From a virus (Duplodnaviria > Heunggongvirae > Uroviricota > Caudoviricetes): a stretch of 13,458 bases of DNA. The notes below the pieces were generated by a model, which was not told the origin of the DNA, did no database searches, and saw only the letters and a program-made list of their open reading frames with translations. Every line of letters starts with the position of its first letter. Position 1 is the first letter of the stretch. The position numbers and the translations under genes were made by a program. The stretch lies in the IMG/VR virus record IMGVR_UViG_2667527608_000004. One strand, given 5' to 3'. Shown piece after piece: positions 6,175 to 6,954 of this stretch.

Positions 6175-6360
6175 TTATTTTTTATGCCTGTAACCCCATT
6201 CTTCCAGCAACCTTGCGGCGTACCACCCAAGAAACAAAGGAAAGAACATTACAATGAGATATTCCCCGCCACGGTCAATGTTCGAAATTGACCAGATTAC
6301 GATGTAACCAGTGTAGGACAGGAATATTACAAACCCCAAAAAGCTACTTCGTCGACTCAT
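6175..6360 (-). CDS. Small hydrophobic protein (about 61 aa, two predicted transmembrane helices)
   Basis: ATG at 6360 is preceded by AAGGAG about 6 nt upstream (alternative GTG at 6366 overlaps the upstream stop). Two hydrophobic stretches (FLGFVIFLSYTGYIVIWSI and YLIVMFFPLFLGWYAARLL). Confidence 0.55.
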   Translation of the reverse strand: MSRRSSFLGFVIFLSYTGYIVIWSISNIDRGGEYLIVMFFPLFLGWYAARLLEEWGYRHKK

Positions 6361-6362
6361 GC

Positions 6363-6683
6363 TCACTCCTTCACTTTGATTCCAGCAGCGCGGATGTTTT
6401 CCTCATAAGCATCCATTGCATCACCGAAGCCATTGGAATAATCAACAGTAAACCCTTTGGCTAATGCTTCTCTGCTGTCGATAAACTTTGGCGCGGTTAT
6501 TTCAATAGCTGATCGCGATGCCTGCCACGTTTGCCAGTGGCCTTGAACATCGTCCATCACGTATTGACCACCAATATTACCGCTGCCAATTTCATGGTGA
6601 TTTTCAGGGTAACGGATAAGGTCTGAGGATTCGCCTCCACGTCGCAACCAACTTTCTTCAAACTTCTTTCTTGATTCGTCCAT
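6363..6683 (-). CDS. Hypothetical soluble protein (106 aa)
   Basis: ORF preceded by GAGGGT; tightly coupled to the downstream small membrane-protein gene; no recognisable catalytic motif. Confidence 0.6.
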   Translation of the reverse strand: MDESRKKFEESWLRRGGESSDLIRYPENHHEIGSGNIGGQYVMDDVQGHWQTWQASRSAIEITAPKFIDSREALAKGFTVDYSNGFGDAMDAYEENIRAAGIKVKE

Positions 6684-6700
6684 CGATACTTACCCTCAGT

Positions 6701-6907
6701 TCAACTCACAAAACGCCACGCCATTTTTGCTACAGCGACAGGCGCAACACCGATAATCACCCACAGGAGAATGCTACCGAAAATCACACCCGCCAGGTCT
6801 TTACCTTCGCCTACCAACCGGACAAAACTGCTGGCAACCACAATGAACGTCGCCACCATCCACATGGCACCGAGAATCCTCAATGCAGAAAAAATCAACT
6901 CAACCAC
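6701..6907 (-). CDS. Small hydrophobic protein (68 aa, two predicted transmembrane helices)
   Basis: ATG at 6907 preceded by GGGGGAGAG about 7 nt upstream; sequence is dominated by hydrophobic residues (AMWMVATFIVVASSFVRLV and VIFGSILLWVIIGVAPVAVA). Confidence 0.55.
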   Translation of the reverse strand: MVELIFSALRILGAMWMVATFIVVASSFVRLVGEGKDLAGVIFGSILLWVIIGVAPVAVAKMAWRFVS

Positions 6908-6922
6908 GATTTACTCTCCCCC

Positions 6923-6954
6923 AAATAAAAAGGCCTGCGATTACCAGCAGGCCT
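6923..6954 (-). terminator. Rho-independent terminator just downstream of ren (tR2-position analogue)
   Basis: On the - strand: 8-bp GC-rich stem AGGCCTGC/GCAGGCCT (plus 6931-6938 and 6947-6954) with an 8-nt loop, followed by TTTTATTT. Confidence 0.7.

Follow-up and report, generated by a model that had tools for sequence, protein, structure and literature searches.

We propose that three consecutive small genes (ORF1, ORF2 and ORF3) found between ren and ninB in a lambda-like prophage of E. coli are three separate, non-essential cassettes, which fill a hypervariable slot already known from the PR operon of lambdoid phages, bounded by the tR2 terminator and ninB. We consider it likely that this accounts for the interval as a whole. 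The three ORFs are shuffled independently among related phages; therefore, they appear to be ordinary slot fillers and not a demonstrable toxin/immunity module. The locus is of a kind already known, comprising catalogued cassettes and no new system. The DNA analyzed here, the window, is a stretch of 13,458 nucleotides from a caudoviricete virus (IMG/VR record IMGVR_UViG_2667527608_000004), and all coordinates refer to it unless another genome is named.

Organization of the locus

The elements of the locus all lie on the minus strand:

7270..6980, minus strand: ren (RefSeq 'protein ren'), which bounds the variable slot upstream
6954..6931, minus strand: hairpin of the tR2 intrinsic terminator, AGGCCTGC-TGGTAATC-GCAGGCCT plus a T-run, from a terminator scan
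6900..6983, minus strand: ninA-type ORF of 27 codons, translated as MTIYITELITGLLVIAGLFIWGRVNRG, spanning the tR2 hairpin
6922..6914, minus strand: SD of ORF1, GGGGGAGAG, upstream of GTG 6907
6701..6907, minus strand: ORF1, 68 aa, GTG 6907 to TGA 6701; predicted two-helix membrane hairpin, PHROG 1165
6697..6693, minus strand: SD of ORF2, GAGGG, upstream of ATG 6683
6363..6683, minus strand: ORF2, 106 aa, ATG 6683 to TGA 6363; soluble, acidic, PF26207 / PHROG 343
6371..6366, minus strand: SD of ORF3, AAGGAG, 5 nt upstream of ATG 6360
6175..6360, minus strand: ORF3, 61 aa, ATG 6360 to TAA 6175; orphan, putative membrane hairpin (N-in/C-in) whose C-terminal tail is basic
5753..6163, minus strand: ninB, GTG start 6163, an orf-family recombination mediator (RefSeq 'recombination protein NinB') and the downstream anchor of the slot

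The ninA-type ORF has an ATGA overlap with the stop of ren and ends 3 nt inside ORF1; its equivalents in HK630, HK620 and Sf6 (gp45) are annotated as NinA. The ATG of ORF3 begins 2 nt past the ORF2 stop, and the SD of ninB, again AAGGAG, overlaps the ORF3 stop. A preliminary description of this DNA had depicted three consecutive genes with ribosome-binding sites behind a tR2-like terminator, with two tiny hydrophobic products surrounding a soluble one of 106 aa that is coupled to the second membrane ORF. These structural points hold: the SDs and tR2 were located on the minus strand, the hydropathy profiles of the 68-, 106- and 61-aa products agree, and the placement of ORF2 and ORF3 across a 2-nt gap fits translational coupling. 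The statement that lambda has only a short spacer here is likewise correct, the end of its ren (40570) and the start of its ninB (40644) being separated by merely 73 nt. In the RefSeq annotation of a 100%-identical prophage of E. coli 13E0767, ORF1 and ORF2 are annotated and ORF3 is omitted. The ninB gene is 95-99% identical over the compared loci. GC content is 0.45-0.50 over 6001..7200 and 0.49-0.52 in the flanks, and the ORF interval displays no GC deviation from the neighboring genes.

The tR2 block and expression from PR

In the alignment, the hairpin at 6954..6931 is base-for-base identical to lambda tR2. It is embedded in a block of ~75 bp that is invariant among lambdoid phages and is found unchanged beside four different replication modules; the Sf6 record labels this block 'tR2' and 'bsq6 boundary sequence', and the HK620 record labels tR2. 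A simple consensus scan of 5500..7500, which a weak or non-canonical promoter could escape, recovered no sigma-70-like promoter on either strand. The terminator scan found none between the ORFs, the sole one being tR2 upstream of ORF1. Given the presence of an N gene (PF25694 match at 12037..12495) and the absence of a detected promoter in 5500..7500, it is reasonable to suppose, as had been suggested, that the ORFs are expressed mainly by N-antiterminated read-through from PR. From their position behind tR2 we infer delayed-early timing for ORF1-ORF3. Published work depicts the nin region as dispensable and densely packed, with genes overlapping at ATGA (PMC8022706). Lacking a detected promoter, the cassettes in the slot would behave as delayed-early genes whose transcription depends on N permitting read-through of tR2; they would then be co-transcribed from PR and translated in a chain with their neighbors.

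Independent assortment in a variable slot

The closest counterpart of the locus is the lambdoid tR2-ninB interval, represented by ninA-ninB of lambda, P22 and HK620, genes 45-49 with bsq6 in Sf6, and genes 58-60 of HK022. It occupies the same position and shares the tR2 block, the ninA mini-ORF and the ninB anchor. HK022 gp58 is a homolog of ORF1 (88% identity) and gp59 of ORF2 (72%), and the family of ORF2 also includes Sf6 gp48. The position of ORF3 is occupied by an unrelated 84-aa gene in HK022 and Sf6, by nothing in lambda, and by ORF3 in this prophage. Other unannotated hydrophobic ORFs were observed at or near the slot in STEC (60 aa) and Cronobacter (50 aa) prophages.

Across related phages the three ORFs occur in many combinations. 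ORF1 stands alone in HK630 and HK75; ORF1 and ORF2 are found together in mEp235, HK022 and the loci L009 and L010; all three are present in phiv205-1, vB_EcoP-611R6 and the loci L005, L011 and L012; an ORF2-like gene accompanies ORF3 without ORF1 in Gally and the locus L013; and lambda has none of them. In STEC, ORF3 lies downstream of a DUF7301 gene, and an STEC prophage locus (L016) carries a different 60-aa 2-TM ORF ahead of its PF26207 gene. Among the 80 closest viral contigs carrying PF26207, ORF1 and ORF2 occur without ORF3 in 49, all three in 20, ORF2 without either of the others in nine, and ORF2 with ORF3 but without ORF1 in two; ORF1 is upstream of ORF2 in 69 of the 80. Of 5,426 E. 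coli genomes, 416 contain ORF1, 51 the present ORF2 allele and 193 ORF3 when a query coverage of 80% or more is required; ORF3 DNA at an identity of at least 95% is present in 195 of the 5,426.

The claim that the three genes form a module finds no support in these comparisons: the sub-combinations and the unequal genome counts (416, 51 and 193) show that they assort independently, and no membrane protein is encoded beside the more distant ORF2 relatives of Klebsiella, Skate-like, Yersinia, Enterobacter and Citrobacter phages. Absence from close relatives with the same flanks was observed for ORF3 in L009 and L010, where the order is ren-ORF1-ORF2-ninB, and for ORF2 and ORF3 together in HK630. 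We accordingly regard it as very improbable that the trio, or a membrane protein with ORF2, constitutes an obligate toxin/immunity or two-component system with interdependent parts. The tight packing, with just 2 nt from the ORF2 stop to the ORF3 start, would suit such a system, as would the precedence of ORF1 in 69 of the 80 contigs and the substitute 2-TM ORF of L016. However, close spacing and ATGA-type coupling characterize the nin region throughout (PMC8022706). Moreover, every sub-combination occurs in apparently functional phages (ORF1 alone, ORF1 with ORF2, ORF2 with ORF3, ORF2 alone, and ORF3 after an unrelated gene), the distant PF26207 members lack a membrane neighbor, and the ORFs match neither PADLOC defense or toxin models nor toxin/antitoxin families. 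Small membrane proteins and PF26207 proteins may still be functionally connected in a looser way, since ORF1 so often precedes ORF2 and another 2-TM ORF precedes the PF26207 gene in L016.

Under the cassette interpretation that we prefer, the pieces would have been joined by recombination at short conserved junction sequences: one in the tR2/SD block, another where ORF2 ends in '...KVKE-stop/AAGGAG', and a third where ninB begins.

ORF1 is a conserved gene for a predicted membrane protein

By the criteria of sequence conservation, ORF1 is a real conserved gene under moderate constraint. It matches the uncharacterized family PHROG 1165 over positions 1-68 of 68 (E 1.1e-35) and has 197 homologs, nearly all of 68 aa, in E. 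coli, Salmonella, E. albertii and E. marmotae. It is found in 107 phage records, among them HK022, HK620, HK75 and Stx2a phages. RefSeq labels it 'hypothetical' or 'membrane protein'; in the HK620 record it is left unannotated. Measured against a divergent allele, dN/dS is 0.33-0.41 (dS about 1.1, saturated), with frame and length kept. Its hydropathy profile displays two hydrophobic spans (GRAVY 1.52), and AlphaFold predicts a helical hairpin (pLDDT 90.7) with helices at 2-33 and 38-67; the C-terminus, KMAWRFVS, has only 2 charges. A Foldseek search of BFVD with this model gave no significant match, only generic hairpins, the best being an uncharacterized protein at E 0.68. The 68-aa hairpin should insert into the inner membrane; for both ORF1 and ORF3, we infer membrane insertion and topology from hydropathy and the positive-inside rule.

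ORF2 is a mosaic member of the PF26207 family

ORF2 is a full-length member of PF26207/PHROG 343, to which it adds a lineage-specific insert predicted to be disordered (residues 17-38). Its PF26207 membership is taken from the precomputed assignments of 97%-identical homologs together with its match to PHROG 343 (E 2e-29). Nearly all of its 160 homologs carry the precomputed assignment to PF26207 (Phage_phiTE_015), PGAP labels proteins of this type 'phiTE_015 family protein', and Sf6 gp48 and HK022 gp59 are fellow members. The protein is soluble and acidic (GRAVY -0.82, pI 5.0). In the alignment, the N-terminus MDESRKQFEE, the core WQASRAAIEI and the C-terminus IRAAGIKVKE are conserved and the inserts between them are swapped, which makes the family member internally mosaic at the sequence level. 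The N-terminal module of ORF2 also occurs in a 187-aa Citrobacter protein (probability 91%). AlphaFold predicts an all-helical structure (pLDDT 70.8) with residues 17-38 disordered, for which Foldseek found a best PDB match of E = 5 and, in BFVD, only uncharacterized Salmonella phage proteins. A relationship to Ead/Ea22 was rejected, because the match is limited to the 10-residue C-terminal tail (probability 1.7%). Literature searches on PF26207, phiTE_015, the PHROG families and the nin region yielded no functional data for the ORFs, and gene 015 goes unmentioned in the phiTE paper. We suggest that ORF2 would act, as a soluble helical PF26207 protein, independently of the membrane proteins.

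ORF3: gene or spacer

Translation of ORF3 is probable, and we do not rate it higher on account of a ratio of nine non-synonymous SNPs to one synonymous, despite the intactness of all 34 full-length copies examined. These copies, which show no stop or frameshift, come from three different upstream contexts. None of the 10 SNPs falls at a third codon position; substitutions are repeated at codons 15/16 and 32/33, and none adds charge to the hydrophobic spans, of which the hydropathy profile displays two. ORF3 carries two K/R residues at its N-terminus, a single one in the loop and four in its C-tail (RLLEEWGYRHKK). A 63-aa version beginning at GTG 6366 is unlikely, as that start would overlap its own SD. 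ORF1 and ORF3 have no similarity to each other and are therefore not paralogs. The known ORF3 proteins are nearly invariant, falling into three near-identical clusters only. A phmmer search against 1.84 billion representatives found no distant homologs, just spurious matches to repetitive proteins, and a scan of GTDB genomes recovered a single near-identical copy.

It is thus pertinent to ask if ORF3 is a gene at all. The segment could instead be a mobile spacer of ~200 bp that travels with the start of ninB, its open frame and SD being incidental, a reading which we deem doubtful but deserving of serious consideration. It is favored by the restriction of homologs to near-identical copies, by PGAP, which makes no ORF3 call in any RefSeq E. 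coli record examined that contains it, and by the 9:1 SNPs, which are unlike purifying selection of the ORF1 style (P about 0.009 at omega = 0.3). A 3-periodic Markov coding score based on 53 long lambdoid ORFs also fails to tell the ORF3 frame from antisense; nevertheless, the real gene ORF1 likewise scores like antisense, and hence this measure is uninformative for small hydrophobic ORFs. Against a spacer, the ORF3 frame is the sole open one of six across the ORF2-ninB gap, the other five being neither open nor able to explain the SNP pattern, and a run of 61 stop-free codons has a chance of about 5% even before an ATG 5 nt after AAGGAG is required. The intactness of 34 of 34 copies in three contexts and the lack of any charge-adding substitution in the hydrophobic spans point in the same direction, as does the annotation of ORF3 in two GenBank phage records. 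Further, the segment has neither an RNA structure signal (z = +0.69) nor an Rfam match that would give it another purpose. In our preferred interpretation, ORF3 would be a young orphan ORF showing no detectable purifying selection, and its 61-aa product would probably be a basic-tailed hairpin of N-in/C-in topology. That it is a genuine inner-membrane protein which recently arose or spread in E. coli lambdoid prophages and is under diversifying selection appears improbable to us. If this were true, its pattern would fit a factor in a phage-phage or phage-host arms race, for instance one blocking or evading an infection step at the inner membrane, and the tR2-ninB slot may be a nursery of small membrane proteins.

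Functional readings of the membrane proteins

Small membrane proteins of phage early regions had invited Kil-like, holin-like, exclusion and toxin/immunity labels for these genes. Scans of ORF1-3 against Pfam (a set without the PF26207 model), NCBIfam and PADLOC returned no matches, the PADLOC defense models giving none at E up to 1, and the holin families in PHROGs, Pfam and NCBIfam likewise gave none at E up to 1. The PHROGs recovered are uncharacterized families only, with no characterized exclusion protein (T4 Imm, P22 SieA, HK97 gp15, Cor) among them, and sequence and profile searches of PDB yielded nothing meaningful. The labels therefore find no support in Pfam, NCBIfam, PHROGs, PADLOC, PDB or Foldseek, and the toxin/immunity reading of the trio is unsupported.

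Class II holins and the pinholin S21-68 are proteins of 60-70 aa with two transmembrane helices. ORF1 and ORF3 share this size and helix number and are both predicted to be small early-region membrane proteins; ORF3 further has the gross class II layout, in which a short basic N-terminus is followed by two hydrophobic helices and then by a C-tail that is charged and basic. It might hence be asked if either or both act in host killing or lysis timing, as Kil-like, class II holin/antiholin-like or membrane-depolarizing proteins. This seems to us improbable, as they have no likeness in sequence or fold to holin, Kil or toxin families (Pfam, PHROGs, NCBIfam, PADLOC, PDB, BFVD), and the stretch from ren to ninB that encodes them belongs to the delayed-early nin region rather than to a lysis cassette driven by the late promoter. 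Moreover, ORF1 has no charged C-terminal domain, and the apparent dual start of ORF3 (GTG-AGC-ATG) is not a credible motif, as its GTG falls within the SD and contributes no positive charge. Small, dispensable products of early operons also include lambda Kil and comparable host-inhibitory peptides, but kil is encoded in the PL operon, where this prophage has its own copy, and Kil has no similarity to ORF1 or ORF3.

T4 Imm and HK97 gp15 are small inner-membrane proteins that block phage DNA entry, and T4 Imm is expressed early in infection. ORF1 and ORF3 resemble both in being small, hydrophobic and, by prediction, located in the inner membrane, but neither of these proteins has sequence similarity to the ORFs. 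The exclusion protein gp15 of HK97, small and located in the inner membrane, is encoded by a promoter-bearing moron and expressed from the prophage (PMC3594210), and a comparable role for the ORFs, as lysogen-expressed morons conferring superinfection exclusion, would be suggested by their being small, prophage-encoded, predicted inner-membrane proteins. Yet morons are recognized by having a promoter and a terminator to themselves and a GC content that deviates (PMC3594210), whereas here there is no promoter-like site, no terminator between the ORFs and a GC content equal to that of the flanks; in contrast to gp15, the genes lie behind tR2 in the repressed PR operon. We consider this role very improbable.

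The role that we favor over others, though with low confidence and by analogy with other small early phage membrane proteins, is that ORF1, and ORF3 if translated, would act on inner-membrane targets of the host during lytic growth, such as the DNA entry of secondary phages or envelope or division functions.

Conclusions

The value of the identification of these genes as likely independent fillers of the tR2-ninB slot is mostly negative, in that the locus should not be treated as a toxin/immunity candidate. PGAP systematically misses ORF3 and other small hydrophobic ORFs of the slot; therefore, catalogues of prophage small proteins are incomplete at this position. ORF1, being widespread (about 10% of complete E. 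coli genomes and many Stx2a phages) and constrained, offers a cheap target for a phenotype screen.

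Layout of the tR2-ninB interval

The window is a lambdoid prophage. Its early right operon is encoded by the minus strand, with the genes arranged as cro, cII, O, P, ren, ninB, ninE and, later, ninG, the phosphatase gene and Q. The features bearing on the interval are:

8864..7965, minus strand, O
7968..7267, minus strand, P
7270..6980, minus strand, ren
6954..6931, minus strand, tR2 terminator (hairpin and T-run), 3' of ren
6907..6701, minus strand, ORF1 (GTG at 6907 to TGA at 6701; 68 aa); SD GGGGGAGAG, ending 6 nt 5' of the GTG
6683..6363, minus strand, ORF2 (ATG at 6683 to TGA at 6363; 106 aa); SD GAGGG
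6360..6175, minus strand, ORF3 (ATG at 6360 to TAA at 6175; 61 aa); SD AAGGAG 5 nt upstream
6163..5753, minus strand, ninB, starting with GTG at 6163
12037..12495, plus strand, N gene (PF25694 match)
plus strand, repressor gene

The preliminary description had placed three ORFs with SD sites directly behind tR2 and up to ninB, where lambda carries a short spacer. Both statements hold: the hairpin and T-run at 6954..6931 align base-for-base with lambda tR2, the three ORFs together occupy the whole tR2-to-ninB space, and the equivalent lambda position is a 73-nt spacer. The packing is tight, with 2 nt between the ORF2 stop and the ORF3 ATG and the ninB SD (AAGGAG) overlapping the ORF3 stop. The region is 100% identical in E. 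coli 13E0767 (from cattle) and several further strains.

The tR2 hairpin falls within a hydrophobic NinA-type ORF of 27 codons (6983..6900, minus strand; MTIYITELITGLLVIAGLFIWGRVNRG), the counterpart of 'NinA' in HK620, HK630 and Sf6 (gp45). This ORF starts in an ATGA overlap with the ren stop and terminates just after ORF1 begins. Ribosomes on it would pass through the hairpin, and PMC4824070 reports tR2 efficiency to be dependent on the proximity of the translating ribosome. The tR2/NinA block of ~75 bp is invariant beside four different replication modules.

Association of the three ORFs across phages and prophages

ORF1-ORF3 are not a linked module or system, as had been supposed; every combination occurs. 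ORF1 stands without the others in HK630 and, by BLAST coverage, also in HK75, HK629 and Kapi1. The proposed comparison across lambdoid prophages revealed ORF1 and ORF2 abutting ninB directly, with ORF3 absent, in mEp235 as well as two E. coli prophages with the same ren flank; in HK022 the pair is followed by an unrelated 84-aa gene. All three are present in phiv205-1, vB_EcoP-611R6 and others, while Gally and a comparison locus (L013) combine an ORF2-family gene with ORF3, ORF1 being replaced by Sf6-type genes 46 and 47. In STEC, ORF3 lies downstream of a DUF7301 gene. Among the 80 closest loci of PF26207, the ORF2 family, in IMG/VR, 49 carry ORF1 and ORF2, 20 all three, nine ORF2 only and two ORF2 and ORF3. 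The E. coli genome counts are likewise unequal (ORF1 416, ORF2 51, ORF3 193, at query coverage of at least 80%). Distant PF26207 genes in Yersinia, Enterobacter and Citrobacter prophages or phages hold the same position between replication genes and nin genes; neither they nor the PF26207 members in Klebsiella and Skate phages are next to a membrane-protein gene.

Coding status and properties of the ORFs

ORF1 is a genuine gene. A PHROG 1165 match spans its full length (E 1e-35), and its 197 homologs, from Escherichia and Salmonella, are nearly all 68 aa long. It occurs in 107 phage records, among them HK022 (gp58), HK75, mEp235, 48 Stx2a phages and HK620, and its DNA in 539 of 5,426 complete E. 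coli genomes. Comparison with a divergent allele (~55% aa identity, dS ~1.1) gives a dN/dS of 0.33-0.41, with frame and length kept. The HK620 homolog (L028 701..898, NC_002730; 68 aa, 51.5% identity) sits in an unannotated ninA-ninB gap. ORF1 has a GRAVY of 1.52 and two hydrophobic spans, modelled confidently by AlphaFold as a helix-turn-helix hairpin (pLDDT 90.7); its orientation by the positive-inside rule is less clear-cut than that of ORF3.

ORF2, also a genuine gene, matches PHROG 343 (E 2e-29), and nearly all of its 160 homologs are assigned to Pfam PF26207 (model Phage_phiTE_015; PGAP label 'phiTE_015 family protein'). Its computed properties are those of a soluble, acidic protein, and its predicted structure is helical (pLDDT 70.8), residues 17-38 forming a disordered insert. 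In the family alignment, interchangeable inserts separate the conserved ends and core (MDESRKQFEE, WQASRAAIEI, IRAAGIKVKE). ORF2 (6363..6683, minus strand) is itself mosaic, as seen against comparison locus L023 (3236..3799 and 4005..4832): an unrelated 187-aa Citrobacter prophage protein opens with the N-terminal module of ORF2, SRxxFExW...WxxWQA (hhalign probability 91%), and an Ead/Ea22-family protein closes with the final ORF2 residues, RAAGIxVK. These shared terminal modules suggest that gene ends double as recombination joints.

For ORF3, we regard a genuine translated frame as probable rather than proven. A strong SD precedes its ATG, it is the only one of six frames open across the ORF2-ninB gap, and it is intact in 34 of 34 full-length copies from three upstream contexts; no substitution adds a charge to its hydrophobic spans, and two GenBank records annotate it. 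Against this, PGAP leaves it uncalled in every examined RefSeq record containing it, its relatives form three near-identical clusters with none beyond, and its ten distinct SNPs comprise nine non-synonymous changes and one synonymous change, with none at third codon positions. This pattern, drawn from 6175..6360 (minus strand) and copies in comparison loci L001-L016, L025 and L026 and 22 IMG/VR loci, fits either neutrality or diversifying selection and is unlikely under ORF1-like constraint (P ~0.009 at omega = 0.3, by our own calculation). None of the alternative reading frames tested accounts for it, the Markov coding score is uninformative on coding status, and no RNA structure or Rfam signal was found in the segment. 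Six of the changes fall at second and four at first codon positions, codons 15/16 and 32/33 being changed repeatedly. If made, the protein, with two hydrophobic spans and K/R residues distributed as two at the N-terminus, one in the loop and four in the tail, should be N-in/C-in by the positive-inside rule.

An unannotated 60-aa two-span hydrophobic ORF lies just 5' of the PF26207 gene in E. coli 2014C-3057 (STEC; L016 2761..2943), and an unannotated 50-aa hydrophobic ORF takes the ORF3 position in Cronobacter sakazakii (L021 2821..2973). It appears that the tR2-ninB slot repeatedly hosts small membrane ORFs and that annotation pipelines overlook them.

Expression and predicted function

A scan of 5500..7500 found no promoter-like site, the three ORFs have no terminator between them, and the GC content of their interval equals that of the flanks. 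As they also lie behind tR2 in an N-requiring operon, we infer that they would be delayed-early lytic genes. The definition of a moron (PMC3594210) calls for a GC shift as well as a dedicated promoter and terminator; with none of these found, ORF1-ORF3 would not be morons.

The proposed homology and profile searches yielded no characterised family: ORF1-ORF3 had no match in Pfam (a copy without the PF26207 model), NCBIfam or PADLOC, matched only families of unknown function in PHROGs, and returned nothing in PDB sequence and profile searches. With Foldseek, ORF2 had no counterpart in the PDB, and the viral proteins retrieved for it and for ORF1 were all uncharacterised; a literature search found no characterised function. 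The preliminary picture of two small hydrophobic proteins and one soluble protein stands; their reading as a functional module does not. The toxin/immunity, holin, Kil-like and lysogen-exclusion labels were likewise set aside, each missing at least one testable defining feature. As a tentative guess, ORF1, and ORF3 if made, might act on inner-membrane targets during lytic growth; the options with a precedent would be to exclude secondary phages early or to interfere with envelope or division functions. ORF2 may be a soluble accessory factor unrelated to the membrane ORFs.

Two further loci in the window were observed:

3298..5070, plus strand, 590-aa ORF between ninE and the HNH/ninG genes, on the opposite strand to them
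10410..10952 and 10940..11716, plus strand, two overlapping genes directly downstream of the cI-like repressor gene

The 590-aa ORF (GC 29-38% against ~47% around it; no Pfam match; RefSeq 'hypothetical protein' WP_000612803.1) looks like a horizontally acquired moron within the nin region. The overlapping genes occupy the lambda rexA/rexB slot; one has a weak DUF6978 match and the other encodes a DUF1828 protein. They are a candidate lysogen-expressed defence pair.

Cassette joints and mosaicism

PMC8022706 describes the nin region as non-essential, with its genes packed exceptionally closely and stop codons overlapping start codons. The joints of the cassettes are short conserved sequences:

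joint 1, the tR2/SD block, which is invariant and is the boundary sequence bsq6 of the Sf6 annotation
joint 2, the ORF2 end 'AAAGTGAAGGAGTGA', serving again as stop and SD downstream of DUF7301
joint 3, the first ninB codons, which travel with ORF3 in three comparison loci (L016, L025 and L026)

The original observation is accurate and the finding ordinary: these are catalogued hypothetical genes in a known variable slot. ORF3, an orphan left unannotated in RefSeq and with an excess of non-synonymous change, is the only mildly unusual element. The tR2-ninB arrangement is classic lambdoid mosaicism.
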